Part shown: positions 1,024-16,899 of the stretch, one piece after another
Position numbering within the stretch: position 1 is the first letter of the stretch
Layout of the letters: each line of letters starts with the position of its first letter
From: Promethearchaeota archaeon
Lineage (GTDB): Archaea > Asgardarchaeota > Lokiarchaeia > Sigyniarchaeales > SOKP01
DNA length: 64,000 bases
Assembly (NCBI GenBank): GCA_048939995.1
Contig: JBHLOY010000003.1
Coordinates: 64,001 to 128,000, forward strand
Reading direction: 5' to 3'
The notes under the pieces: model-generated
The model's database searches: none
What the model was told of the DNA's origin: nothing
What the model saw: only the letters and a program-made list of their open reading frames with translations
Translations under genes and position numbers: made by a program

Positions 1024-3756
1024 TTAGATTAAGTTTAATTGATTTAGTAAATCATTTAATTTTTGTTTATTTTCATGATTGTCTGGATCTTTTATTAGTC
1101 TTTTTTGATAAAAAATAACATTACCATATTTTAATTCAATATTATTAAATCTTTTAACCCATGACATAAATTGGTCTAAATAATCTTGTACTTCGGGATC
1201 ATTTTCAAATAATTTGATTTCTTCTCTTTTTTGACTTGCTGCAATCATACGCTTATATTTTTTCAAATTATATCCTTGCTTTTTTAATAATTGAATATTA
1301 GCTCTACGTATAAAAGCTTCTATACCGCTTCTCCACCTAACATATTGCTCATTAATTCTATCAATTGTCTCTTGAACCATCTTTATTTCTTGTGGAAATA
1401 TGGTAGTTTTATTTTTAGTCAGAATCTTCTTAATGACTTGAAATTCGGTACTAAAAAAGCTAATATAATTGCTTATCATTTTCGCAAATTCATCTAATAC
1501 AATATTATAATCTTGTTCGAATAGAACTTCAAAACTAGAAAATGTAAGATTTTTTTTATCGAATGTTCCCTTTATTTTCCTTGTGTTGAGTAAATCCTCT
1601 GTAATTAAACATAGTAATTCAATTTCTTTTTCCATTAGTTCTTTCCCATAAAAAAGGTCCTGAAAAGAAAAACTATAGCTATTTTGAAATATTAGTTTTT
1701 CAATTCCTTTTTGGGTGTAAAATCTTACTTTTTCACCATCATCATAAAAAATTCCTTTAATTTTTTCACTATCCTGCAATTCAGTTAGTAATTCTTTAGT
1801 CAAACTCGATGTAGTATCTATATCTTCTAGAGAAATATAATCTTGTGATATTGCTTTATCTATTAAAACATTTCTTAATTCCTTTTCTGCGTCTTTTATC
1901 TTATTTTCATTAAAAATTAAAGTATCTCCTCTTTTTAAATATCTTAGATCTAATGAGTGTAGAAATTCAAAAAAAGCAGTTTCACTCATTCCAGTTTTAT
2001 CGAGATATTCTCTAATAATTAGCTGTTCTTGCTGTTTTATTTCATCTCCAATAAGGCGAAGGTTTTCATCAATTTTATTTAAAATAAGATCTTCATGAAT
2101 ATTTAATTCTTTTGATAATTCTGCTATTTTAAATTTCCTAATGTCAAGATCATTGATTTGATTTATTTTATCTATCTTCTCATTTACATATTTTGAGTAA
2201 TAAAATCTCTCTCTATCATTATTAAATATCCCGCTTCTGGAATCAACGATCTTATCCAAAACATCAACTAATAAAACTTTGCCAATATTCAACCTGCCAG
2301 ATATTATTGGGATAGAAAAATAACCTAAAATTTTAGAATCTTCAATTTCCTTTTCGATTTTTAAAAATCCTAGATTAGTTAGTAGCATTGTTCCCTTGCG
2401 GTAGTTTGTTAGATAATCTTTAGGAAGATTTTTTATTAACTTAATAAAGCTTTTATTGGTTAAGATCTCACGATAAGGTCTCAAATCAACGGTATTATCT
2501 TTTGCTGCTTTAGAATTGATCTCTTGTGTAATAGTTTTTAATGAATAATATGCTGTTGCATCCTTTCCTAATAAAAATTGTTTCTTGCCCGAGAAAGAAA
2601 TATCTTTAACAATTTTCTTTATTAAGGTACTTGGTAAATAATCAAATTTATTAATATATAGGATTCCGTTATCCTTTATTTGCTTTTCAAACTCAGCTCT
2701 CAAATAATTATATGGATAAAAATAACCTAAATCTGAAAAATAGCCCTTGATAACTTTTAATTTAATCAATGATTTCATAACTAGATTTAATTCAGAATCT
2801 GATTCAATAATATATAAAAAATCATTAATTGATTGACTTGAAACTCTTCTATTTTGCTCAAAAAAATCAATCAATTTTGATTTCTCAAGTTCATAAAAAA
2901 AAGTTCCATTACGTTTCTCACTTTTGATATAAAAATATACTTCTTCGTCTTTAAATTTGGATTTCTTTATATTTTCTATAAAATCCTTTAATCCAATTTT
3001 ATGTTTCTCACTTAATTCTTTAATATTATATTTTTTTAAGATTATTTGAGAATTAACTATTTCAAAGATTTTATCAAAATCCTTTCCTTCATAATTTAGG
3101 GTTCTTAGAGGATCATAAAGTATCTTACATACTGCTATTAATTGATTATAAAGATTAGGGTGCATCTTTTCTCCTAACTTTGAAAATATCCTTATAAATA
3201 TTTGTTTAAAGCAAAAAAGTTCATTAAAGTGAAAATCCTTACAATTACTTAGAAAAACTAATAAAGAATAAAGATTATCATTATTTTCTTCAATTGAAAG
3301 AGCATTTAAGATATCTTCTTTATAATCACATAGTACTTGGGGTTGTTTTTTTATAATCTCTTGGAGAAAATAATGAACATTATCCCTTACATCTGAATTT
3401 TTCTCAATCAAAGCTTTGGTGAAATGCGATATACTCTTTTTGATGTACTTGGAATCATTTAGCATTCCAAATCCTAATATAATTATTGAATTCAACATTA
3501 ATTCTGGTGAACTTAAAAACTCATGGATTTTTTCTAACAAATCATCAGAAATATAATTAAAATTATTTTCTGCTAAGACACTTAAAATATAGGTTATTAA
3601 AATCCTATTATCTTCTTGTTCTAAGAGAACATTTAAATCTTTTATGATTTTATGAACTTTTTCAACCTTATTTTTATTCAAATACTTATTTAGTTTCCCA
3701 ACAATATTTTCTAGAATTTCATTTCCCTTAAAATCCTCCAAATTAAACATAATCAT
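1024..3756 (-). CDS. 910-aa protein: HEAT/ARM-like N-terminus, tandem PCI/winged-helix repeats, C-terminal helical/coiled-coil region
   Basis: NSDVRDNVHYFLQEI HEAT-like segment; recurring wing motifs IKGYFSDLGYFY, SGIFNNDRERFYY, IKGIFYDDGEKVRFYT, IKGTFDKKNLTF. Confidence 0.6.
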   Translation of the reverse strand: MIMFNLEDFKGNEILENIVGKLNKYLNKNKVEKVHKIIKDLNVLLEQEDNRILITYILSVLAENNFNYISDDLLEKIHEFLSSPELMLNSIIILGFGMLNDSKYIKKSISHFTKALIEKNSDVRDNVHYFLQEIIKKQPQVLCDYKEDILNALSIEENNDNLYSLLVFLSNCKDFHFNELFCFKQIFIRIFSKLGEKMHPNLYNQLIAVCKILYDPLRTLNYEGKDFDKIFEIVNSQIILKKYNIKELSEKHKIGLKDFIENIKKSKFKDEEVYFYIKSEKRNGTFFYELEKSKLIDFFEQNRRVSSQSINDFLYIIESDSELNLVMKSLIKLKVIKGYFSDLGYFYPYNYLRAEFEKQIKDNGILYINKFDYLPSTLIKKIVKDISFSGKKQFLLGKDATAYYSLKTITQEINSKAAKDNTVDLRPYREILTNKSFIKLIKNLPKDYLTNYRKGTMLLTNLGFLKIEKEIEDSKILGYFSIPIISGRLNIGKVLLVDVLDKIVDSRSGIFNNDRERFYYSKYVNEKIDKINQINDLDIRKFKIAELSKELNIHEDLILNKIDENLRLIGDEIKQQEQLIIREYLDKTGMSETAFFEFLHSLDLRYLKRGDTLIFNENKIKDAEKELRNVLIDKAISQDYISLEDIDTTSSLTKELLTELQDSEKIKGIFYDDGEKVRFYTQKGIEKLIFQNSYSFSFQDLFYGKELMEKEIELLCLITEDLLNTRKIKGTFDKKNLTFSSFEVLFEQDYNIVLDEFAKMISNYISFFSTEFQVIKKILTKNKTTIFPQEIKMVQETIDRINEQYVRWRSGIEAFIRRANIQLLKKQGYNLKKYKRMIAASQKREEIKLFENDPEVQDYLDQFMSWVKRFNNIELKYGNVIFYQKRLIKDPDNHENKQKLNDLLNQLNLI

Positions 3757-3769
3757 TTTAGTTTAATTT

Positions 3770-4495
3770 TTAGTCTAATATGAATTTTTTGATTGGTTCA
3801 AATTCCAAAAGAGATTCAATATTTTGGAGGATAACAGTTGGATTGGATTCTTCTAAATCCTTTTTAGTTCCATGTCCGCTTAATAATGCAATGCTCCTTA
3901 TATTAGCATTCTTAGCAGTTTCGATATCACTCGGTAGATCTCCCACAAAATATACATTATTTTTTATGATTTCACATTTATAGATGGTTTTAATTTGATT
4001 TAATGCTAACAAGATTGGATATGGATTTGGTTTTCTATAAGAAGAGTTGTCTCGGGAGATGTAAACAGTAAAAAAGTTATCTAAATTTAAAATTGTTCTA
4101 AAAAAATTCAACCGAGCCTTGCTTGTATTCGATACTATTCCCATTGGAATTCTGTTTATTTTCAATTTTTTTAAAGCATTCTCTAAATTTGGCTTCAATG
4201 TTTCATATCTTTCATATAGGGGATAAGTACGCTTAAACTTCAAGAAAAAAAGAATTCTTCGCCACCTACTAGGAATATATCTCTTATAGACTTTATAAGC
4301 GCGAATTAAGGCTTTAATCCTGTTTTTTGAATCAGCTTCTTCAAATAAACGGGCAAAATCTATTAATCTCAAATCCTTAACATTCCTAAATTTATAGAAT
4401 TTATTCTTTAATAATTTTAACGCGGTATATTCAAGAGCTTTCTGAGTGATTATAACACCATCAAAATCGAATAGCAAAATAGGTGGATTTAGCAT
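3770..4495 (-). CDS. HAD-superfamily hydrolase (phosphoglycolate phosphatase-like)
   Basis: FDFDGV, VSN, RKPNP, VGDLPSD motifs I-IV. Confidence 0.9.
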   Translation of the reverse strand: MLNPPILLFDFDGVIITQKALEYTALKLLKNKFYKFRNVKDLRLIDFARLFEEADSKNRIKALIRAYKVYKRYIPSRWRRILFFLKFKRTYPLYERYETLKPNLENALKKLKINRIPMGIVSNTSKARLNFFRTILNLDNFFTVYISRDNSSYRKPNPYPILLALNQIKTIYKCEIIKNNVYFVGDLPSDIETAKNANIRSIALLSGHGTKKDLEESNPTVILQNIESLLEFEPIKKFILD

Positions 4496-4692
4496 ATGTA
4501 CTACTCAAAATTTAATTTAATTCTTAAATCTAATGGAATATAATTATTTAATTTTAATATTAAGCTTTCCTAAATGTTATATTATTCTGTGTATAAGAAG
4601 GTTTTTTAAATAGCATTTCTATATATATTGTTAATAACTCGTTTATTTATTAAAAAAAATATAAAGATTGCTAGAAAAAGTAAGTGATAATT

Positions 4693-5355
4693 ATGTCTGA
4701 AAATAAAGTAAAATCTGTGTCTGAAGTTAAACTACGATCTTATCCAAAGGTTATATTCTTTTATCCACTGCTCATTGTAAGTTTTATTTTATGGCTTTTG
4801 CAATTCTTTTTTACAGAACCGGTAGCTTGGTTTGGTAATATATGGATGATTGTCTTCTTTGTTAATTTATTTATAACCGCTTTTGATTTTTCGTCTACTA
4901 AATTTTTCCTTCTCCTTCTTGCTGTCGTAATTGTTGTGCTAGTAATAATATTTTTAATCCCAGGTGGGATTGTACCTGCTGCAACATTTGATTTTAATTT
5001 GAGATTAACTGCAGAGTTTTATTTTGTAGCCATGATCGTGTTGATTTTTATTTTAGGATTGGTCCTTATTAGCGCTCAATTTGATTACTGGAAGATTGAA
5101 AGAAATGAAATTTACCACAAAAAAGGTATCTTCACTTCAGCAGAAAGAATTCCAACTAAAAGCTTAAGAATTAAAAAGGACATTCCAGATGTTTTCGAAT
5201 TCTTCGTCTTAAGAGCCGGTTCTATTACACTTATGCCAGGACACGGTGATGTAATCCCTTTAACTACAGTTTTAAATGTAAATAAGAAAGCAGAACAAAT
5301 TGATTGGCTGTTAAGTCATATTAGTATGGAACCTGATGAGTTAGATGGTCAGTAA
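4693..5355 (+). CDS. 4-TM membrane protein with C-terminal bacterial-PH-like domain
   Basis: Four hydrophobic segments, then DYWKIERNEIYHKKGIF...VFEFFVLRAGSITL; ATG at 4693 (ORF track starts at GTG 4684). Confidence 0.65.
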   Translation: MSENKVKSVSEVKLRSYPKVIFFYPLLIVSFILWLLQFFFTEPVAWFGNIWMIVFFVNLFITAFDFSSTKFFLLLLAVVIVVLVIIFLIPGGIVPAATFDFNLRLTAEFYFVAMIVLIFILGLVLISAQFDYWKIERNEIYHKKGIFTSAERIPTKSLRIKKDIPDVFEFFVLRAGSITLMPGHGDVIPLTTVLNVNKKAEQIDWLLSHISMEPDELDGQ

Positions 5356-5430
5356 ATTATATCAAGTAGATAAATAAACTTTATTTTTTATTTTTTTTAA
5401 ATTACCCTTTTTTCATTTCATCCTAGCAAA

Positions 5431-6183
5431 TCAAAAGTAATTTCCAATTGATTTTACCATTCGATAAGAATAAGCGATTTGTTGGTTCCCTTGATCGCTT
5501 ATTCCCATGTGACCCGGAAGTAGGTATTTTACATCCAAATTGCTTACGAATTTTATTGATTCAGTTAAAGTTTTTAATGATCCTCCAGGAAAATCATAAC
5601 GACCAAAACTTCCCCCCGTAAATACTAAATCTCCGGGAATTAAGATTTTTTTATCAGGTTCATATAATGACATTGATCCTATAGAGTGACCTGGAGTATG
5701 AAATATCTGAAAACTAAATTCATTATTGACTTTGATTACGTTACTACTACTTAAATCTTCCACTTTTAAAGGAATAATGTTAACACCAAACATACTAGGT
5801 GTTATTCCAAGACTACCCGGGAAAATACTCGATTCATCTCCTTCTTGCAATATTTTAGCGGTTTTGCCGTATGCATAAATATCTGGTGGATTTTCTTTTA
5901 ATAAATTTATCAGTGGATAAACGCCAAGAACATGATCAACATGTTCATGAGAAATGTAGACTTTTGTTATATTATTAAACTTTAAATTAAAATCTTTCAT
6001 GCCTTCTATTAAACCGTTTAAAGATATACCGTTTCCCGCATCAAAAAGTGCCAAATCATTAGAATCATTATCTTTAATTATATATTGATTACAATCCAGC
6101 ATTAAATTTTCACTAAAATAATATAAATTTGTAGTTACTTCTTGGCCTCTTTTCTTTGAACCTTTAATTTCCGGAAAAAACAT
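5431..6183 (-). CDS. MBL-fold metallo-hydrolase (glyoxalase II-like)
   Basis: HEHVDH, TPGHS, GDLVF, PGH motifs. Confidence 0.92.
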   Translation of the reverse strand: MFFPEIKGSKKRGQEVTTNLYYFSENLMLDCNQYIIKDNDSNDLALFDAGNGISLNGLIEGMKDFNLKFNNITKVYISHEHVDHVLGVYPLINLLKENPPDIYAYGKTAKILQEGDESSIFPGSLGITPSMFGVNIIPLKVEDLSSSNVIKVNNEFSFQIFHTPGHSIGSMSLYEPDKKILIPGDLVFTGGSFGRYDFPGGSLKTLTESIKFVSNLDVKYLLPGHMGISDQGNQQIAYSYRMVKSIGNYF

Positions 6184-6288
6184 AATTAAAACCTTAGAGT
6201 TTACAAAAATAAAGGCTATTATATTTTAATGTTTTTCTATTCAAAAATATAAAAAATAATTAATTCCAAAAAAAATAATCTATATATT

Positions 6289-6699
6289 ATGAAAGCACAA
6301 CCACCAGATGATAATAATTTTGAAACATTAAAACATAAAATTGGATTTGGTATTAAATTTTGGTTAGAGTTTCAAAATAATAAACGAAAGAATATTCTAG
6401 GCTCGGGGTGGGCAAAATTACTAGATAGTATAAATGTAACTCAAGAACAAGAACCTAAGTCTTTAACAATAGCAGCAAAAGAATGTGGCTATTCCTATAA
6501 ATATGCTTGGAATATATTAAAAAGGATTGAAAGAAGAACAGGTATGGCCCCCGTATTAACAGGAAAAGGAGGTGCTGGTGGTGGAGGGTATGTAATATTA
6601 AATAATTGGGGTAAATATTTGCTAAAAACTTATAAAAATTTGTTATACGAGTTGCAAGAGGTTGAAAAAAAGCTTGAAAAATCCTTTAAAATAACATAA
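6289..6699 (+). CDS. ModE-type winged-helix regulator (HTH domain only)
   Basis: SLTIAAKECGYSYKYAWNILKRIE...KGGAGGGG signature. Confidence 0.85.
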   Translation: MKAQPPDDNNFETLKHKIGFGIKFWLEFQNNKRKNILGSGWAKLLDSINVTQEQEPKSLTIAAKECGYSYKYAWNILKRIERRTGMAPVLTGKGGAGGGGYVILNNWGKYLLKTYKNLLYELQEVEKKLEKSFKIT

Positions 6700-6803
6700 T
6701 ATTTAGATTTAATTAAATTTTAATTCTATTAAATAATATTAATTTTAAGAGCATCAATATTATTACTGATTTTAAATCAATGAGTATTTAATAGGGAGAT
6801 TAT

Positions 6804-7229
6804 TTGGAAGATAAAGTTCAGAAATTCAATGAAATTAAAGTATCTGATTTTATGATAAAAGAACCTATTTTTATTACTCCTAATGAGAAAGCCAGTACTA
6901 CTGAACTTCTAATGTTAAGAAAAAATGTAGGCAGCCTTCCTGTTGTTAACAATTCTACAGATAAAAGAGTAATTGGAATTATTACTCAGAGAGATATTAG
7001 ATTAGCACGATTTGCTATGAATTTAGAATCTCCTAATACAAGAGTTAGAGATTTAATGACACCTGATCCAATTGTTGCTAAAGTAACAGATTCGTTAGTT
7101 GAAGTTTTAGAAAAATTAGTAAAAAATAACATCGAACGTTTGCCAGTTATAAATGAGAATCAAAATTTAGTAGGCTATATTACAAAACAATCTATTATCG
7201 AAACAATATATAAACATCTTAATTTGTAG
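6804..7229 (+). CDS. CBS-domain pair protein
   Basis: Two CBS repeats (VSDFM...LPVV...GIITQRDI; VRDLMT...LPVI...GYIT). Confidence 0.92.
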   Translation: MEDKVQKFNEIKVSDFMIKEPIFITPNEKASTTELLMLRKNVGSLPVVNNSTDKRVIGIITQRDIRLARFAMNLESPNTRVRDLMTPDPIVAKVTDSLVEVLEKLVKNNIERLPVINENQNLVGYITKQSIIETIYKHLNL

Positions 7230-7361
7230 TAATACTTCTTGAATCATAATTAATTATAAGATATCACCTTAAAAAAAAACACATACATATTTTTATTACA
7301 ATCAATACTTTATGTTTATAGATATTATAGTTCATATAAATCAAAATTAAATTGAGATAAC

Positions 7362-8888
7362 ATGGCATTACCTCTATCGGGAACACCGATAATTCTTGAT
7401 ATAGGATCAGCTTATACAAAGGTTGGATTTGCTGGAGAACCCAGTCCTAGGTTTGTTTTTCCCACAATAACCGGCACAGAAAAGTATAAAGCCGTAATGG
7501 TTGATGTAAGTGCGAGGAACATATATGTGGGAAATGATGCTGCAAAAATGAGGGGTGTTTTAAAGATAAAACGTCCGATAGAGAGGGGAGCAATAATGGA
7601 TTGGAATGATTATTACGAAATTCTAAATTATTGTTTTTATTCTCTTCTAAGAATACCTGATCTTTCTCAATACCCTGTTTTATATACTGAACCTCCATTT
7701 CTACAGAAGGAAACCAAAGAATATATCGCACAAGTTCTATTTGAAACACATCGTGTACAAAAATTAATTATGGTTCCCACACCCATTTTATCTATATTTA
7801 GCGTGGGATTAACAACTGGTTTAGTAGTTGAAGGTGGAGATGGCATAACTTGGGTTTGTCCAATAATTAATGGACAAATCATTGATCAGACAGTGCAAAA
7901 ATTAACCTTAGCAGGTACAGATGTTAACCAGTATCTGAAAAACCTATTAATGCGAGAAGGGATTCATATCGAATCCAGTGCAGTTGATGAAATTGTTAAG
8001 GATATAAAAGAACGTAATTGTTACTTTGTTTTAGATCCAAAAAATCCCCCAAAAAAGGATGAAAAGTTTAAGACTGTCATGCCAGATGGCTCTACCCTAA
8101 GTGTTCCACATTATATCTTTCATGAAGCACCTGAGGTATTATTTCAACCAAGCCTAATAGGATATCCGATTAATAATATTCCTCAAGCTATTATAACTAG
8201 TCTTAAAGGAATTGATAAATATTATTGGAGTGAGTTATTATCTCATCTTGTCTTATCAGGCGGTAATCTATCTTATTCTGGTTTTGAGGAAAGATTAGGC
8301 CTTGAATTATCAAGTTTAATTCCCCAGTTGGGAAAGATTCCTAAACCAAAACAGGAAAAATCTACAACTAAAGGAAAGGCTCTATTAAAATCTGTTGAGG
8401 GAATGAAGAAAAAGCAAGATACTTGTCCACATTGTGGTACAATTGTAGATTTATCTGATGATAAAGAAATATGCCCCTCATGTGGAGGCAGAGTCGTTTT
8501 ACCAGAACTTACAATTAGTTTAAATAATTCAAATAAAAAAGCACCTCTTATTGCGGGGAAACTCTTTTGTCCTCACTGTGAAAATAGCATTACCGATTTA
8601 TCCTCAATATTTTGCCCTTATTGTGGAAAAAGTGTTGAAACTCTTGATACTAAAGGAGGTTCAAAAAAAACAATTGATTCACCACCTCCTGCTAAGGAAT
8701 TTGCTGGTTTCTATGACCCATCTGAAGAGATATTAAGTTTCTTTGTACCTGACAACCTTATGTATGCAATTTTCAACGGTGCAGCGATTCTAGGAACACT
8801 CCAGTCTTTTCTGAGATTGTTTATTACTCAAGAGCAATTTCTTTCCAATAAAGATCTTTTATATAAAGATATAAGTGAAATTTTTTAG
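7362..8888 (+). CDS. Asgard actin-family (actin-related) protein with double zinc-ribbon insertion
   Basis: ILDIGSAYTKVGFAGE, PIERGAIMDW, PVLYTEPP, TGLVVEGGDG, MPDG, APEVLFQP, VLSGG, AIFNGAAIL; four CxxC motifs in the insert. Confidence 0.95.
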   Translation: MALPLSGTPIILDIGSAYTKVGFAGEPSPRFVFPTITGTEKYKAVMVDVSARNIYVGNDAAKMRGVLKIKRPIERGAIMDWNDYYEILNYCFYSLLRIPDLSQYPVLYTEPPFLQKETKEYIAQVLFETHRVQKLIMVPTPILSIFSVGLTTGLVVEGGDGITWVCPIINGQIIDQTVQKLTLAGTDVNQYLKNLLMREGIHIESSAVDEIVKDIKERNCYFVLDPKNPPKKDEKFKTVMPDGSTLSVPHYIFHEAPEVLFQPSLIGYPINNIPQAIITSLKGIDKYYWSELLSHLVLSGGNLSYSGFEERLGLELSSLIPQLGKIPKPKQEKSTTKGKALLKSVEGMKKKQDTCPHCGTIVDLSDDKEICPSCGGRVVLPELTISLNNSNKKAPLIAGKLFCPHCENSITDLSSIFCPYCGKSVETLDTKGGSKKTIDSPPPAKEFAGFYDPSEEILSFFVPDNLMYAIFNGAAILGTLQSFLRLFITQEQFLSNKDLLYKDISEIF

Positions 8889-9011
8889 CTTTCCAATTTT
8901 TTAATTTTATCCTAAAATTATAACTTATATCTTATAATATCGTTAATTTTTAATTCCAAGCTATATTAAAAAAATTAAAATCTATTTTAGTCCATATTGA
9001 GGTTTTATTAG

Positions 9012-10112
9012 TTGAGAAGTAAATTACGGAGCTTGGCAGTAATAACTGTGATTTTTTCATTATTCTTAATAATGCTTCCAACGGTTTCAGCAAAAACTAG
9101 AGAGAGTTATTTAGTTGATTTTTTATATCAAAATTATGATGAAAACAATAATTTTGGTAATACTTTTGAGGATACCTTCTTTGCCTTAGAGATAATCGAT
9201 TATTATAATTTATATTCCATTCCTGTATTATTTGGTACTGAAGACAAAATTGATAAAGCTACATTTATTGATCATTTAGAATCTAAAGTAGAAGAAATGT
9301 TTGATGATGACGATGTTAACCTCTACGATTTATCTAATATCTTAGCTTCACTAAATATCTTAAACGGAATAGCATCATTAGACTCAAACTATAAACTCAA
9401 AATTTATAGATATATTAACCAAACTGTACAAACATACGGTGGATTCTCGATTACAAATTCATCTACAGCAGTGAATCTAATCTCAACATTTATTGTATAT
9501 AATATCTATACATTGATAGGTGAACCTATAGTTAATCAATCACGCCATATAAACTGGATTCTTTCTTGTAATAATACTGATGGTGGTTATGGAGGTAATC
9601 AGACTTTACCCTCAACAATCTTGACAACGTATTATGCAATATATTTAATCAATGAATTTTCTTCTCTTCTCGTTAACGAGACCGCAACTTCAAATTATTT
9701 AGTCTCATTCTTTAGTAGTGATTCAAATGATCAAGTTAATTATGGAGGTTATTTTCCCAGTCAAATAGCAGATAACACTTTATTGAGTAGCACTTATTAT
9801 TGCGTTAATGCGATAAATTTAATTGATGCATCGGAATTAAATCCTAGTTTAACAATAAGTTGGATATTAGCACGTCAAAATATTCAAGATGGTGGATTTA
9901 TAGATGATCCAACAGCTCAAGGCCAAGGGGATTCCTCAATTGCAGCATCTTATAATGCGTTTAAAGTATTACAAGTGTTAAATGCATTAAATTATCTCAA
10001 CCAAGATGTCTTCATGGTCGAGTTTAACTATATTGTTTTAATTGTATTATTATCAGTAATAGGAATAATAGTTATAATTATTGTATTTGTTTGGAAAAAA
10101 AGAAAAATTTAA
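9012..10112 (+). CDS. secreted, C-terminally membrane-anchored prenyltransferase/squalene-oxidase-repeat (alpha-alpha barrel) protein
   Basis: Signal peptide; repeats NTDGGYG, NYGGY, QDGGF with TYYAI/TYYCV; C-terminal TM plus KKRKI; several N-x-S/T sequons. Confidence 0.8.
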   Translation: MRSKLRSLAVITVIFSLFLIMLPTVSAKTRESYLVDFLYQNYDENNNFGNTFEDTFFALEIIDYYNLYSIPVLFGTEDKIDKATFIDHLESKVEEMFDDDDVNLYDLSNILASLNILNGIASLDSNYKLKIYRYINQTVQTYGGFSITNSSTAVNLISTFIVYNIYTLIGEPIVNQSRHINWILSCNNTDGGYGGNQTLPSTILTTYYAIYLINEFSSLLVNETATSNYLVSFFSSDSNDQVNYGGYFPSQIADNTLLSSTYYCVNAINLIDASELNPSLTISWILARQNIQDGGFIDDPTAQGQGDSSIAASYNAFKVLQVLNALNYLNQDVFMVEFNYIVLIVLLSVIGIIVIIIVFVWKKRKI

Positions 10113-10232
10113 TCCTTCCATTATTTTTAATAATCATCTAATAATACTTAATTAAATCTTTAGTTTACACTCTTTATATAAAATATATAATTTTTTTTTT
10201 ATTTTTATTTGAATTACTTAAATTGATTAACT

Positions 10233-11090
10233 ATGGAAAAAATTCTTGACGGTAAAAAGTTAGCAGAAAAACTCAATTCTGATTTGAAATCAAAAATATT
10301 AAATATATATACTGAAACAGGAATTAAGCCAAAATTGGCAGCTATTTTAGTAGGTGAAGATCCAGCTTCTGAAATCTATGTAAATATGAAGCGAAGAAAA
10401 TGCGAACAAGTTGGTATCGAATCAATATTAATAAAGCTAGATAGACAAATTTCAAAAGAAAGAATATTTAGCGAAATAGATAAATTGAATAATGATGAAA
10501 CTATCCATGGGATTCTTTTACAAATACCTTTACCTGAAAAGTTCAAAGAGATTAAATCAAAAATCTTAGAAAGGATTTCTCCCCTTAAAGATGTGGATGG
10601 TTTTAATCCTATTAATAAGGGGATGCTTTTTGATTATGAAGAAGAATTAGCACCATGTACCCCAAAAGGTATTATTGCTTTACTTGAATATTATAATATC
10701 ACAATACAAGGTAAAGATATAGTAATCGTAAATCGTTCTAATCTTGTTGGAAAACCTCTTATTTTTATGCTTCTTAAACGGAATGCAACTGTTACGATAT
10801 GTCATACTTCTACTAAAAGCATTGAAAACCATATGCAAAGAGCAGATATATTAGTAGTAGCTGTAGGAAAACCTAAATTTATCACAAAGGATAAGGTAAA
10901 AGAAGGTGTTATTATTATCGACGTGGGACAGAATAGAGTTCAAGGGAAGTTGTATGGTGATGTTGATTTTGAAGATGTATATGAAAAATGTGGTGCAATA
11001 ACACCAACGCCAGGAGGAATTGGACCTTTAACTGTTGCTTTCTTACTTCAAAATACTTTTATTGCTTATAAAAAACAATTAAAAATTTAA
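10233..11090 (+). CDS. folD: methylenetetrahydrofolate dehydrogenase/cyclohydrolase
   Basis: LDGKKLA, HGILLQIPLP, KDVDGF, PCTPKG, RSNLVGKP, TPTPGGIGPLT. Confidence 0.97.
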   Translation: MEKILDGKKLAEKLNSDLKSKILNIYTETGIKPKLAAILVGEDPASEIYVNMKRRKCEQVGIESILIKLDRQISKERIFSEIDKLNNDETIHGILLQIPLPEKFKEIKSKILERISPLKDVDGFNPINKGMLFDYEEELAPCTPKGIIALLEYYNITIQGKDIVIVNRSNLVGKPLIFMLLKRNATVTICHTSTKSIENHMQRADILVVAVGKPKFITKDKVKEGVIIIDVGQNRVQGKLYGDVDFEDVYEKCGAITPTPGGIGPLTVAFLLQNTFIAYKKQLKI

Positions 11091-11181
11091 AAAAGTAACA
11101 CTTTAAAAGAAATAAATAGATTTATTATTAATATAAGACATATAGAGGATTATCAGTAAAAATTAAATAGCTCTTAAAAAG

Positions 11182-11634
11182 ATGGCAGTTCTCGAGTGCG
11201 GAATAAATTTAGGAATGAGAAATTTGATCGAGATTCGCTATTATTCTTCCTCAGATAATTTACTAGATCCAAATTTGAGAGCAGGATTTCTTTCCGCCCT
11301 TGAGTCTTTTACTAGTGAAGTTTTTGGAGATGATATTAATGTTGTCTCATTAGCTTCATTCAAACTTGTATGTTATTGCGATTTAATTGCTTTACCTAAT
11401 GATACATTAAACAAGCAACCATTATTATCGTATGCAATTATCGAAAAAGAAACAGATACAGAACTTATAAAGAAATTCTTAAAGAAAATAAATTCCCATT
11501 TCCTGAATAGATATTCTCTTAATGACATTTTTTCAAAGAAAGAAAACTATTTCGCAAAATTTATAGATCGAATTAATGAAATTCTTGGAGATCTAAGATT
11601 AAAAACGGAAGATCGATTTAGATCGATTTTTTAA
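11182..11634 (+). CDS. longin-like domain protein
   Basis: DPNLRAGFLSALESFTSE helix after two N-terminal strands; FLKKINSHFLNRY...F C-terminal helices, typical of Asgard longin-fold proteins. Confidence 0.65.
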   Translation: MAVLECGINLGMRNLIEIRYYSSSDNLLDPNLRAGFLSALESFTSEVFGDDINVVSLASFKLVCYCDLIALPNDTLNKQPLLSYAIIEKETDTELIKKFLKKINSHFLNRYSLNDIFSKKENYFAKFIDRINEILGDLRLKTEDRFRSIF

Positions 11635-11689
11635 AAAAATTGGCTACTTATCATTGAAATAACCGAAAATTTTCAGGTGTTATAGGTTT

Positions 11690-12892
11690 ATGAGTTCAAA
11701 TATAGGTCCAGAAGCACAGGCAGCTTATCAAAAATATCTAGATGCTACCTCTTTAGAGGAAAAAATCAAAAAATTGGAGGAATTTATTTCTTTAGTACCA
11801 AAACATAAAGCCACTGAAAAGATCGTAGCGTTGAATCGATCCCGCCTTGCAAAGTTAAAAAGAGAGCAAGAAGAACAAAGAATTAGACAAAAAACGACAG
11901 CTAAAGTAATAAGCCCATTTTCCATTAAAAAAGAGACGATTCAAATAATCTTGATAAGTGACTATTATACTCCTGGTGCGGGTAAAACTTCACTATTGAA
12001 TTTTTTAACGGGAGCAGCAGAAGAGAAAATAGGGAAATTTACTGCATTACCCGAAATTGGTATCTATGAATATGATAAAATACGATATCAAATAGTCGAT
12101 ATGCCTTCGATAATGGAAGGTGCTTCTAATGGAATTGGCAATGGTAAAGAAATACTTTCTCAATTAAGATCATGTGATTTAATATGTTTTTGTATTGACT
12201 TATCTCGCGAATATGATTCTCAGATAAAATTATTATTAAGTGAGTTAAATAATGCAAATATTCGTTTAAATTTACCTCCACCACCAGTTACAATAGAAAA
12301 AACAGGTTCAAATAAAATACAAATATTCTTTCTTACTCCAGATGCAAAAGAATCTGATGAATTTCTCGAATTAACCGAAAGGATAAAGGAAATTGTCGCT
12401 GCTAGTGGTATTAGAAATGCTATAGTAAAAGTTTCTGGTGAGATAACGCTAGATCAAGTAGTCGATGCATTAAATCCGTCTGTTTCATATAAGAAAGCTA
12501 TAATTATCGGGACAAAGGGTGATTTACCTGGCACAAAAGAACAATTTGAAAAATTGAAGAAATCATATTTAGATAAATTTCCAGCAATAATTGGATCTAG
12601 CATACCTAAAAAAGAATTCCCAGATAATTTTGGAGAAATTATATTAAATATTCTTGGTAAAATCAAAATTTATACGATGAATAAAGGAGAAGTTGCTGAA
12701 AAGCCATTAGTGGTAGATTCAGAGCCAAATATGCCTAAAATTAGAGATATTGCATTAAGAATACATAAACGCTTCTATGATAAATTTGATCATGCTGTTG
12801 TAATTAGAGAATCAGAACGTCAAAAAAGAAAGAAAGTTGGGTTAGATTATGAACTAAAAAATAATGATATTGTAGAGTTATTTACTAAGTAG
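11690..12892 (+). CDS. DRG/OBG-family GTPase with C-terminal TGS domain
   Basis: PKHKATEK N-terminus; PGAGKTS, FTA, DMPS, TKGD; IH...F...KVGLDYELKNNDIVE TGS. Confidence 0.9.
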   Translation: MSSNIGPEAQAAYQKYLDATSLEEKIKKLEEFISLVPKHKATEKIVALNRSRLAKLKREQEEQRIRQKTTAKVISPFSIKKETIQIILISDYYTPGAGKTSLLNFLTGAAEEKIGKFTALPEIGIYEYDKIRYQIVDMPSIMEGASNGIGNGKEILSQLRSCDLICFCIDLSREYDSQIKLLLSELNNANIRLNLPPPPVTIEKTGSNKIQIFFLTPDAKESDEFLELTERIKEIVAASGIRNAIVKVSGEITLDQVVDALNPSVSYKKAIIIGTKGDLPGTKEQFEKLKKSYLDKFPAIIGSSIPKKEFPDNFGEIILNILGKIKIYTMNKGEVAEKPLVVDSEPNMPKIRDIALRIHKRFYDKFDHAVVIRESERQKRKKVGLDYELKNNDIVELFTK

Positions 12893-15563
12893 GAGAAGGA
12901 TTCCGTATTTTTTCTATAATATTAGGTATTTCTTTTATTTGATCCTCATATAATAAATCAAGTTTAGGAATTCCATTTAAAATATTCAAGATACTCTCAA
13001 ATGAATAGATTAAATTTTCTAAATAATCTACTATATCACCTTTAAATATTAAAATTTTATACTCCTCTTCAAAAATTCTGCTGATCTCTTCAACTGAGAG
13101 ATTATCATCAATTCTAAAGGATAATAACATTCGCTCTAAATTTTTTCTCCCGCAATCACAATAAGGATTATCCTTACAGCCACAATTAAAGATTTCATTT
13201 ACCCATTTTGTAATAAAGTCAATGAATTCATTTGAGAATTTTTTTCTTTTTTTTACATAATCTGCATCCATTAATGATAAGACACTTGAACTGAAGAAAT
13301 TATTACTAAAATATCTCATATTAATATTTTTTGATAAATCTGATACAACTTTTTTTGATAAGTAGACATTCTTTAATGGTTTTAATTCGAGCACGATATT
13401 TATGATGCTCTCAGCCTTTAGTTTTAAAACATCAATAATTTCTAAACTCTTTTCAACCGTTAAAAATGATTTGGAAATTGCCTGTCCTAATTGAGTAGTA
13501 GAATAAATTGAATTATAATCTAATATAATTAATTTCAATTTCATTAACTTTTTTAGTAGTAATTCAACTTCATAATCTGAATTAATTAAGTATTTATTAA
13601 ATTCATAGATACTATTTTTTGGAGTTCCCTCGTTAAACATTGAAATAAACCCAAGTAATTCTGTCATTGATTTATCTTCATTTGGCTCTAATTCAAAGTC
13701 TTTTATCTTCCCATTTAATAGTTTGATAGCTATATTCTCTTCAGTAATTTTCATTTTAGGAACATAAATCTTTTCAGGTTCTACAAGAAGATATGCATAA
13801 CCGATATCATGTTTCCCTAATCTTCCTGCTCGGCCTAACATCTGTTCAAATTCTGCCACCGTCAAAACTTTAATTCCCATTGCTAAAGATTCAAATATTA
13901 CTTGCTTTGCAGGGAAATCTACTCCTGCAGCTAGTGCAGCAGTAGCTACAACAGCTGAAATTTTCTGATCTTGGAAATCCATTTCAATTAACTTTCTTTC
14001 TTCACTAGTTAATCCTGAATGGTAAGCTCTTGTTTTGATCCCCTTTTTATCTAGGAATGTGGCTAGCGACTCACACTTTTTCCGAGAATTAGTAAAAACT
14101 ATAGATTGCCCTCTAAATCCATAACTAGATCTCTCGGAAAATGCAGATTGAACCAGTTTTATTATGAATTTATGCTTTAGGGTTTCATTTAAGCACAAAA
14201 TTAAGTGGCGTTCAATAGGGACAGGTCTATTATTATATTTAATTAATGTTCCATTTAGCTTTTTGGCTAAAAGTTCTGGAGCTCCAATTGTAGCGCTTAA
14301 ATATAAAAATTGCACATCCTTACAAATCACTTTCAACCTTGCTATTAATCCATCTAATAGATATCCTCTATCCAAATCGGTTAATACTTGAATCTCATCA
14401 ATTATTATTGTACCTATATCCCCCAATAAACCTTTATTTCCACTCCTTAACAAAAAATCTATAGCTTCATAAGTTGCAATAATAATATCGGCATCAACTA
14501 ATTCCTCTAAATTAAGAGTCTCTGTTTTATCTAATAATGATTCTCCAATTTTTTTTATTACCTTCAAACTTAAGGCTTTATATTTTATCTCGAATTCTTC
14601 TGTTCTTACATTTGCTAAAGCTACAATTGGAACTAAATATAACATTTTAAGCTTTTTTGTTAATACTTTTGAAATTCCAGCAATTTCACCAATTAAAGTC
14701 TTGCCAGAAGATGTAGGTGCCATAACTATTTGATTTTTATTATCACTTAACAGCCCTTGTTCAATTGAGATAGCTTGAATTGGCAGTAATCTGTAAATTC
14801 CCTGTGCTTTTAATATTTCAATTAACTTCATTGGTATAGAGACATTATCAAAATGATAATTTAAGTATTTTTTATTCAGAGAAGGACTTTTTTCAATATC
14901 GTACAAAGTAGTCTCTTTATTTTTGACTGGATTAAAATCTAGTTTAAAAGAATTTAGGACTTTATCAATGTTTTTAAATTTTAAAATCATATGATTAAAA
15001 AAATTTTTTAGCTTTGGATTAACTTTCTCGGTTGAAATTAACCCAATAAGTCTTGCTTGACCTAAAACAAGTTCTAAAGCACAATCAGAGCATACAATTT
15101 GATTTTGGCTTGATTTAATTTGCTGATTTTTATTTAGGATATTAAATTCTTTCCTATCTAAACAAGTTCTACAAAATGTTAAATTAATTATTTTATCATT
15201 ATTAACTTGGAAACTATTTAACATTTTTCGAATTTCTCGATAATATTTTGGATCAGTTTGACTTGAGAACGCTACAAATTGATTTTTCTCAGATTTTAGA
15301 AACTTTTTGAAAACTTTTGGATCAATAGGTTCTTTATCGCCGCCCTTTTGTATCTTCAAGAAAGATAGTGGACGAAACTTGTTTTTAAAATCTAAACCAA
15401 AAAGTAGTATACCTCTAAAAAAAGGCTTTCTAACATAAGTGATTGAGTGAGTCTTCTTGTTGAAAGATTTTAAATAAAAAAAGTTAATATTAAAACAGTT
15501 CTCTTTCTTACTTTCCAGATTTTTATCTAACACAATAAAGAACTTTCTATTGATAACACTCAA
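12885..15563 (-). CDS. archaeal DEAD/DEAH-box SF2 helicase (DUF5814-type)
   Basis: APTSSGKT, DEIQ, SAT, YHSGL, QMLGRAGR, C-terminal CGCKDNPYCDCG. Confidence 0.93.
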   Translation of the reverse strand: MSVINRKFFIVLDKNLESKKENCFNINFFYLKSFNKKTHSITYVRKPFFRGILLFGLDFKNKFRPLSFLKIQKGGDKEPIDPKVFKKFLKSEKNQFVAFSSQTDPKYYREIRKMLNSFQVNNDKIINLTFCRTCLDRKEFNILNKNQQIKSSQNQIVCSDCALELVLGQARLIGLISTEKVNPKLKNFFNHMILKFKNIDKVLNSFKLDFNPVKNKETTLYDIEKSPSLNKKYLNYHFDNVSIPMKLIEILKAQGIYRLLPIQAISIEQGLLSDNKNQIVMAPTSSGKTLIGEIAGISKVLTKKLKMLYLVPIVALANVRTEEFEIKYKALSLKVIKKIGESLLDKTETLNLEELVDADIIIATYEAIDFLLRSGNKGLLGDIGTIIIDEIQVLTDLDRGYLLDGLIARLKVICKDVQFLYLSATIGAPELLAKKLNGTLIKYNNRPVPIERHLILCLNETLKHKFIIKLVQSAFSERSSYGFRGQSIVFTNSRKKCESLATFLDKKGIKTRAYHSGLTSEERKLIEMDFQDQKISAVVATAALAAGVDFPAKQVIFESLAMGIKVLTVAEFEQMLGRAGRLGKHDIGYAYLLVEPEKIYVPKMKITEENIAIKLLNGKIKDFELEPNEDKSMTELLGFISMFNEGTPKNSIYEFNKYLINSDYEVELLLKKLMKLKLIILDYNSIYSTTQLGQAISKSFLTVEKSLEIIDVLKLKAESIINIVLELKPLKNVYLSKKVVSDLSKNINMRYFSNNFFSSSVLSLMDADYVKKRKKFSNEFIDFITKWVNEIFNCGCKDNPYCDCGRKNLERMLLSFRIDDNLSVEEISRIFEEEYKILIFKGDIVDYLENLIYSFESILNILNGIPKLDLLYEDQIKEIPNIIEKIRNPSPT

Positions 15564-15939: not shown

Positions 15940-16899
15940 ATGCCAGATGTAAAGATCAAAACTCCTAATTTGGATGATATATTTGAGAAATGGAAACAAA
16001 GTGCTGTAAGGAAAGATCGAAAAAGAATGGAAAAACAATTTGGTACAAAAGGTGCTGTGTTTTCTTTAGATGCCATATCTGCTGCCGAATATGTTAAAGA
16101 TACAATGAAGGAGGCTGCAATTTATTTTGCAGTTAAAATGACTCTTGGAGCTGCGCCAAAAGGAAAAGAAGAACATATCCTATTAGCTCCTAAATTACCC
16201 AGAGAATATTTTTATTCATTTAAGGGATCAGAAAAGGTTAATAAGGATAATTGGAAGGGAGATGAATTGGTACCTATGTATGAATCGATTCAACCGATAT
16301 CATGTAAAAATTGCGGAGGAAAGGGATATATTGATGGCAAATGTAAAAATTGTAATGGTAGTGGTAAAATCGAAGAAAATATTGTTGTTTTTATCGGGGA
16401 AGAGCAAAAGAAAGAAAAGAAACCCTTCTCCTATTCATGTGTTGCGTGTTATGGTACGGGAAATCGAAGGGAGCCTTGTAAAGAGTGTGGTGGGCATAAA
16501 AGTTTATATAAGTATGAGATTCTCCCTGTTCCTTTTAAAACAGTAGTTACTGGGATTCCAATACTTCATAGTAGTGCCCAAACTAAATATGAAAAAGAAA
16601 TGGGAGAGGATCTTCATAAAATGCTTGAAGATGTAGAAGGAATTAAGTTCAGTGAATTCAAAGAACTAGAGTCGAAATCAGAAGCTTCATTGGGGTATTG
16701 GAATAAAAATATAAAAAAAACAATTAACTCAGCAGGCAATGATTATAAAACTTATCAAAAAGATAAAGATACACAAATTACTACCCAGATTTATCTTTTT
16801 CCTCTTATCCAAATGTTCTGCGAGACTAAAAAAGGAAAAAAGTTCGAGATCTATAGTTTAGGCTCAGCAAATAAATTTATGATTTACTCAAACTTCTAA
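15940..16899 (+). CDS. DnaJ-type CxxCxGxG zinc-finger protein without J-domain (SSUH2-like)
   Basis: CKNCGGKG, CKNCNGSG, CVACYGTG, CKECGG; no HPD motif. Confidence 0.75.
   Translation: MPDVKIKTPNLDDIFEKWKQSAVRKDRKRMEKQFGTKGAVFSLDAISAAEYVKDTMKEAAIYFAVKMTLGAAPKGKEEHILLAPKLPREYFYSFKGSEKVNKDNWKGDELVPMYESIQPISCKNCGGKGYIDGKCKNCNGSGKIEENIVVFIGEEQKKEKKPFSYSCVACYGTGNRREPCKECGGHKSLYKYEILPVPFKTVVTGIPILHSSAQTKYEKEMGEDLHKMLEDVEGIKFSEFKELESKSEASLGYWNKNIKKTINSAGNDYKTYQKDKDTQITTQIYLFPLIQMFCETKKGKKFEIYSLGSANKFMIYSNF

Follow-up and report, generated by a model that had tools for sequence, protein, structure and literature searches.

What might an actin fold do when two zinc ribbons interrupt one of its filament-contact loops and the residues that place water for ATP hydrolysis have been replaced? 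Lokiarchaeia crawl using lokiactin-filled protrusions (PMC13716822), and a protein of this kind is encoded in the 64,000-nucleotide stretch of Lokiarchaeial DNA analysed here (the window). Judged by its sequence, this actin-related protein (ARP) is an actin-family member from a known but uncharacterised clade of Asgard ARPs, for which a specific function can be predicted.

The zinc-ribbon ARP gene is intact and encodes an actin fold

The gene is a single open frame of 508 aa, and internal stops are absent:

7362..8888, + strand: zinc-ribbon actin-related protein (ARP) gene; open reading frame, Pfam, AF2 model, independent contig

Pfam Actin (PF00022) matched residues 8–324 at 220 bits against a curated cut-off of 27, and PDB actins aligned to the protein as two segments, residues 4–323 and 461–494, the best being the Asgard 'HC1 actin' (9wc4). 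An AF2 model built from a 136-sequence alignment reached a pLDDT of 88, with the core and both ribbons well defined and three linkers poorly so, and superposed on actin with TM ~0.9 by target. Model and sequence together showed the four subdomains of the actin fold, along with its phosphate-1, phosphate-2 and adenosine motifs. The complete actin fold described by an earlier sequence-only reading of this locus was thus confirmed by profile, PDB matches and model.

That reading had also raised the prospect of an assembly chimera, or of an insert missing from close orthologues. A contig from another study's run covers positions 7200–8983 with 3 differences and so spans the entire gene, and both ribbons were present in 120 of the 120 nearest database homologues (62–100% identical). 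Because of the independent contig and the orthologues found throughout the order, a chimera was ruled out. A sigma-70 promoter and terminator scan gave matches at chance level; its consensus is bacterial and the host archaeal.

Orthologues occur throughout one order of Lokiarchaeia

Distribution was surveyed in 400 Asgard genomes, with three candidates scored per genome. Of the 153 further genomes of the order, 142 had an orthologue, with all four families represented, and this query found none in 246 Asgard genomes outside it. Among the 11 genomes of the order without a match, the misses inspected were mostly assembly gaps, G147 aside: the gene runs off the contig end in G134, and elsewhere the flanking genes were missing too or stood at contig ends. 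Lokiactin co-occurs in all four families. Exact look-ups retrieved orthologues from L. ossiferum (UYP44711.1), P. syntrophicum (QEE17409.1) and H. repetitus (MCF2140085.1), and both cultured Lokiarchaeia carry the protein.

The genome under study has four actins, namely lokiactin on contig C19, the zinc-ribbon ARP and two further ARPs. In a 116-sequence tree the zinc-ribbon ARPs formed one clade (SH-aLRT 100) apart from lokiactin and eukaryotic actin, and our protein was monophyletic and syntenic with UYP44711.1. By tree and distribution, then, the zinc-ribbon ARP is an order-wide Lokiarchaeial actin paralogue and not lokiactin, as had been proposed from the letters of the window. One genome (G196) has, next to a normal copy, a 385-aa long-branch duplicate inside the family (L254:2973-4130(-), contig C37), in which the ribbon insert is absent and the D-loop decayed.

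The L. ossiferum orthologue UYP44711.1 is one of three ARPs from that organism placed in a tree and measured by RT-qPCR by Rodrigues-Oliveira et al. (PMC9834061, Fig. 5d,e). As far as the available parts of that paper go, the word zinc is absent and the account is confined to tree position and transcript level, with no insert, active-site change or function. The available part of a viractin preprint (bioRxiv 2020.06.16.150565) describes two Lokiarchaeota-only asgardactin clades with no insertion mentioned, and the zinc-ribbon ARPs are probably one of these 'asgardactin 02/03' clades. Its methods list a P. syntrophicum asgardactin as 'QEE...17499'; the corresponding position in that genome (L116) yielded no actin, and the entry may be a slip for QEE17409, the ARP orthologue. 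In databases the automatic name of the family is 'zinc ribbon domain-containing protein', and a 79-member Actin+DZR cluster in the ESM Atlas corresponds to it. Within the literature searched, only PMC9834061 cites a family accession, no function was found for Asgard ARPs, and no account was found of the insert, the altered active site or the asymmetry between faces reported below, an earlier mention of the insert being possible. The protein had been called an undescribed component; this may hold for its architecture and asymmetry and has to be given up for the protein as such, given the published tree and RT-qPCR.

Two zinc ribbons occupy the actin 322–326 loop

Between actin positions 322 and 327 the ARP has 136 residues compared with 4 in lokiactin. 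The ~130-aa insert first placed at about nucleotides 8328–8723 mapped to this loop:

8328..8723 (approx.), + strand: ~132-aa insert in the actin 322–326 loop (residues ~323–454); PDB alignment, residue mapping, model
8424..8483, + strand: zinc ribbon 1, C355–C374; Pfam; in 36/36 diverse members; zinc binding predicted from the motif
8568..8624, + strand: zinc ribbon 2, C403–C421; Pfam; in 29/36 diverse members; zinc binding predicted from the motif

The four CxxC motifs are C355/C358/C371/C374 and C403/C406/C418/C421, and all eight Cys are invariant in alignment A1. DZR and Zn_ribbon models matched residues 355–422, and the scores for the DZR, Zn_ribbon_3 and Zn_Ribbon_1 modules exceeded the Pfam cut-offs (DZR, PF12773, 32.2 bits against 27.3), which bears out the two zinc ribbons first read from the CxxC motifs. 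Compared with DZR-type modules in Pfam, the ARP ribbons lie 28 residues apart, sit within an actin fold and are lost independently, ribbon 2 being absent from 7 of 36 diverse members, L. ossiferum among them. On this pattern they are two independent units.

The remainder of the insert is less constant. Its length across the family runs from 101 to 214 residues, and the model shows its linkers as flexible, with low confidence. The Lys-rich linkers and the SPPP motif pointed out earlier are both present, and neither is a family trait: the linkers are Lys-rich in close relatives only and acidic in distant members, and SPPP, at 440–443, is not conserved and is probably incidental. Its candidacy as a profilin or SH3 site was rejected on that ground.

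At least 28 ORFs of the genome carry ribbons of the same generic type, which often terminate membrane proteins and also end two Rab-like GTPases (G000 contigs C19:129050-129640 and C27:8999-10624). The GTPase on C19 lies ~7 kb from the lokiactin gene. A 319-aa protein elsewhere in the window (15940-16899(+)) has a DnaJ-type cysteine-rich zinc finger and no J-domain match. An Atlas feature search and a PDB sequence search with the insert returned generic ribbons only, and the ARP ribbons were weakly similar to those of Nop10 and RpoM (E 0.009–0.11). In the NZF/RanBP2 ubiquitin-binding finger, Trp precedes the first Cys and Thr-Phe follows the second. By inspection this signature is absent from the ARP ribbons, which show Asp-Thr/Asn before and Gly-x after, and zf-RanBP is absent among the Pfam matches listed for the ARP; NZF-type ubiquitin binding was rejected for want of the motif.

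The nucleotide site is kept and the hydrolytic residues are replaced

With residues mapped on conventional 375-aa actin, the active site comprises the following:

7398..7421, + strand: phosphate-1 loop, D13/G15/K20 = actin D11/G13/K18; invariant in 36/36
7584..7586, + strand: R75 replacing sensor His73; Arg in 36/36
7779..7781, + strand: T140 replacing Gln137; Ser, Thr or Ala in 36/36
7830..7853, + strand: phosphate-2 region, with E157 for Asp154 and W164 for His161; residue mapping

Residues that hold the nucleotide (D11, G13, K18, G156, G158, E214, G301 and G302) are invariant in the family. Lokiactins keep Q137, H161, H73 and D154 in 34/34 sequences, and the ARP has none of the four. The substitutions first noted by eye (Thr for Q137, Trp for H161, Glu for D154) were recovered by alignment, which added Arg for H73. 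Glu is usual at the 154 position throughout the family; position 161 varies among the 36 diverse members (Trp in 16, His in 4), so its Trp is best described from the alignment as a lineage-specific trait.

Placement of the hydrolytic waters in F-actin depends on Q137, H161 and D154 (PMC9618068). Arp4, in which Thr142 stands for Q137, lacks ATP hydrolysis, and in Arp8 Arg takes the place of H73 (PMC3510490). Since the water-positioning residues are gone, as in Arp4, we infer that the ARP binds nucleotide and hydrolyses little of it, in line with the low ATPase activity predicted earlier. Ser14 of actin is Glu or Gln in 21/36 members, and ATP binding may therefore be weak in distant members.

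The pointed face is retained and the barbed face is degenerate

We used the filament contacts listed by Chou and Pollard (bioRxiv 309534), the pointed face being formed by subdomains 2 and 4 and the barbed face by subdomains 1 and 3. The ARPs matched the lokiactin consensus with an identity of 0.55 on the pointed face (17 positions), 0.26 on the barbed face (18 positions; 0.88 in lokiactins) and 0.37 elsewhere; the pattern had been noticed beforehand, so this test was not fully blind. Pointed identity exceeded barbed identity in 36/36 diverse members and all 9 deep lineages, compared with only 4/31 other Asgard ARPs and 0/21 sequences of a second paralogue described below. Against random positions matched for lokiactin conservation, p was 0.004 for the difference, 0.019 for the pointed excess and 0.053 for the barbed deficit, values that are optimistic because neither positions nor lineages are independent. 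The contact segments are:

7479..7559, + strand: subdomain 2 D-loop and helix (residues 40–66); pointed contacts K39, Y40, M44, R62, V64 (actin numbering) retained
7866..7889, + strand: W-loop (residues 169–176); Y166, E167, Y169, H173 equivalents lost; degenerate barbed face
8082..8090, + strand: Pro-Asp-Gly 241–243 (actin 243–245); invariant pointed contact
8214..8231, + strand: actin 286–291 segment, D288/R290 replaced by Tyr/Trp; degenerate barbed face

Among the pointed-face residues, E205 and S202 are not kept, M44 stands in 34/36, and K39, Y40, R62, V64, P243, D244 and G245 never vary. On the barbed side the partners of these retained contacts, Y169, E270, Y166, H173, D288 and R290, are lost almost wholly. 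Since K39, Y40 and D244 are retained also in the second paralogue, part of this conservation is structural, and the specific signal lies in M44, R62 and V64. All members have a C-terminal extension of 4–9 residues beyond the usual end, on the barbed face. Actin residues 322–325 contact 243–245 of the next subunit (PMC7247010), and the insert, sitting at 322–325, is therefore on a filament-contact loop.

A one-faced subunit that may dock on lokiactin

An incoming actin monomer joins the barbed end through its own pointed face (bioRxiv 309534). A protein with only that face could add once and could not be extended. We consider the evidence evenly poised for the ARP being a non-hydrolysing, one-faced subunit that docks on the lokiactin barbed face, with its ribbons tethering a partner. 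It would bind nucleotide as a structural cofactor, hydrolysing poorly. Its D-loop, R62 and 243–245 loop would dock on the lokiactin barbed face like an incoming monomer, no further subunit could then add to the ARP, and the growing end would be capped or a monomer trapped. Held by flexible linkers on the side left free, the ribbons might recruit a partner, possibly at the membrane, and so fix the sites of filament ends. Capping of the growing filament end is a tentative proposal, somewhat short of an even prospect, and head-to-tail trapping of a lokiactin monomer is a decidedly unlikely one. Weighing against a block to extension are the M44-accepting pocket, which is largely retained, and the flexibility of the insert. 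The capper suggested by the sequence-only reading has gained specific, sequence-based support from the asymmetry of the two faces. UYP44711.1 is transcribed, and lokiactin expression is severalfold above that of the other homologues (RT-qPCR, available part of PMC9834061), as would be expected of a sub-stoichiometric regulator.

The ARP might instead serve outside the cytoskeleton, as nuclear Arp4 and Arp8 do, as a rigid ATP-bound scaffold whose ribbons bind nucleic acid or a protein machine. The genes around it are housekeeping and not cytoskeletal, it shares active-site changes with the nuclear Arps (Thr for Q137, Arg for H73) together with insertions, and the faint Nop10 and RpoM likeness of its ribbons also fits. 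Such a role leaves unexplained why lokiactin-type M44, R62 and V64, lost in most other Asgard ARPs, are retained here, and the linker charge, basic in close and acidic in distant members, is not conserved; we regard it as unlikely.

Retained contacts might also mean that the ARP polymerises, either alone or as a subunit within lokiactin filaments, by way of a barbed face that has evolved anew, with ribbons displayed along the polymer. Both the D-loop and the pocket that accepts M44 (L142, Y143F, T148, I165) are present, the latter largely so, and a further subunit might therefore still add; Trp stands at 290 in 25/36 members and D286 is kept in 22/36, and the insert, flexible in the model, need not block sterically. 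Against this, no variation is seen in K39, R62 and D244, the salt-bridge donors, but their acceptors D288, R290, E270 and E167 do vary, so that the two sides are not co-conserved (within-family conservation 0.74 pointed vs 0.54 barbed). The W-loop tip Y169 is lost in 36/36, the C-terminal extension is present and the hydrolysis residues are gone. Polymerisation of this kind seems to us distinctly improbable.

A mirror-image paralogue

The second ARP (L002:5528-6643(-), G000 contig C6; L. ossiferum UYP44126.1) shows the reverse face pattern in 21/21 sequences. It keeps Y143, Y166, H173, E270, D286, D288 and R290 in about 20–21 of 21, has lost M44 and R62, and has Arg for H161 in 21/21. By this pattern it is a candidate pointed-end capper or nucleation template. 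If the zinc-ribbon ARP is an actin-fold barbed-end capper, the two could form a capping and anchoring system built from paralogues, with the ribbons tethering filament tips to the membrane, a scheme we think somewhat unlikely.

The mirror ARP might also be the direct partner of the zinc-ribbon ARP, in a closed head-to-tail heterodimer or with the two capping both ends of a lokiactin mini-filament, as in dynactin. Its retained barbed contacts, its loss of M44 and R62 and its confinement to the same order agree with this. The two genes are never adjacent, and five genomes with the zinc-ribbon ARP, four of f4 (63–88% complete) and one of f2 (66%), yielded no mirror ARP; the misses make lokiactin the likelier partner, and direct pairing of the two ARPs very unlikely.

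Several genomes of family f1 have, at one or two genes' distance upstream of their mirror ARP, a gene for a 229-aa proline-rich protein (L002:7534-8223(-)) with a near-invariant C-terminal helix ending in LKK, WH2-like by eye and with no Pfam support for WH2. From its sequence it is a possible actin-binding or nucleation-promoting factor. Gelsolin domains are present in the genome; profilin and CapZ-alpha profiles gave no match, and neither did the control searches.

Other Asgard ARPs have been remodelled in other ways. Two unrelated ones (L179:630-2081(+) and L180:792-2258(-)) retain the barbed face and have an N-terminal Cys/His extension, probably a zinc ribbon by its residues and then a second, independent fusion of actin and zinc ribbon. 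Seven further ARPs (L164, L166, L174, L177, L183, L187 and L193) have 570–850 aa with large insertions or fusions, which in several interrupt the D-loop region.

The gene neighbourhood

The ARP gene lies in a 12-gene block (window 1024–15563) conserved in family f1. The block includes genes for a HEAT-like 910-aa protein, a HAD hydrolase, a 223-aa membrane protein, a metallo-beta-lactamase-fold protein, a small HTH regulator, a CBS protein, a FolD-like protein, a 150-aa protein, a DRG-like TGS GTPase and a helicase-like protein, and the usual downstream neighbour of the ARP:

9012..10112, + strand: 366-aa protein, usual downstream neighbour; Pfam, synteny

The 366-aa protein has a signal-like N-terminus, a prenyltransferase-like alpha/alpha toroid, a C-terminal membrane anchor and a basic cytoplasmic tail of 4–7 residues, and is predicted to be a single-pass surface protein. 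Its gene is directly downstream of the ARP in 76/81 close loci and downstream in 17/20 more distant ones (one with a small ORF between), so a functional link is possible. The ARP could then be a dedicated cytoplasmic anchor for this surface protein, joining cell coat to actin skeleton, and ribbons of its type end many membrane proteins and two Rab-like GTPases in the genome. The synteny is less telling than it looks: close loci keep the entire block, and 13/20 distant ones still have FolD and the HTH gene. L117, L121 and L125 are exceptions to the pairing, searches of G274, G276 and G278, which carry the ARP, did not find the neighbour, weak homologues of it occur in lineages without the ARP, and its cytoplasmic tail has just 4–7 residues. 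A dedicated anchor is highly improbable.

Implications and comparison with known systems

Docking of the ARP as a one-faced subunit on lokiactin is a polarised, testable prediction, for a protein that both cultured Lokiarchaeia encode and that almost no genome of the order lacks. If true, actin duplicates became end-specific regulators outside eukaryotes, with one polarity unknown among eukaryotic Arps, and this would bear on how Arp2/3- and dynactin-like machines originated from actin paralogues.

The closest known proteins are UYP44711.1, QEE17409.1 and MCF2140085.1, which share the clade (100% support), insert site, ribbon 1 and downstream gene; the L. ossiferum protein has one ribbon compared with two in the 508-aa ARP. 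With lokiactin (PDB 9wc4; the C19 copy) and eukaryotic actin the ARP shares the fold, nucleotide pocket, D-loop and pointed contacts. It is ~37% identical to lokiactin over the core, and differs from both in forming a separate clade, in lacking Q137, H73, usually H161 and the barbed contacts, and in having the insert and the C-terminal extension.

Arp4 and Arp8 resemble the ARP in Thr for Q137 (Arp4), Arg for H73 (Arp8) and loop insertions, a resemblance only (PMC3510490). Arp4 helps keep actin monomeric, and the large insertions of Arp8 cover its pointed end and hydrophobic plug (PMC3510490), whereas the pointed face of the zinc-ribbon ARP is intact. By analogy with these two, the ARP probably does not self-polymerise. 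Both lack zinc ribbons.

Arp2, Arp3 and the dynactin subunit Arp11 are actin-fold proteins of filament ends with one working face; they are found at pointed ends and have kept the barbed face. Short insertions in the 322–326 loop do not stop Arp2 and Arp3 from templating growth, which counts against the insert as a bar to extension of the ARP. In eukaryotes only proteins of non-actin folds (CapZ, gelsolin) are known to cap barbed ends. The polarity of the zinc-ribbon ARP, with its pointed face intact and its barbed face degenerate, is opposite to that of Arp2, Arp3 and Arp11.
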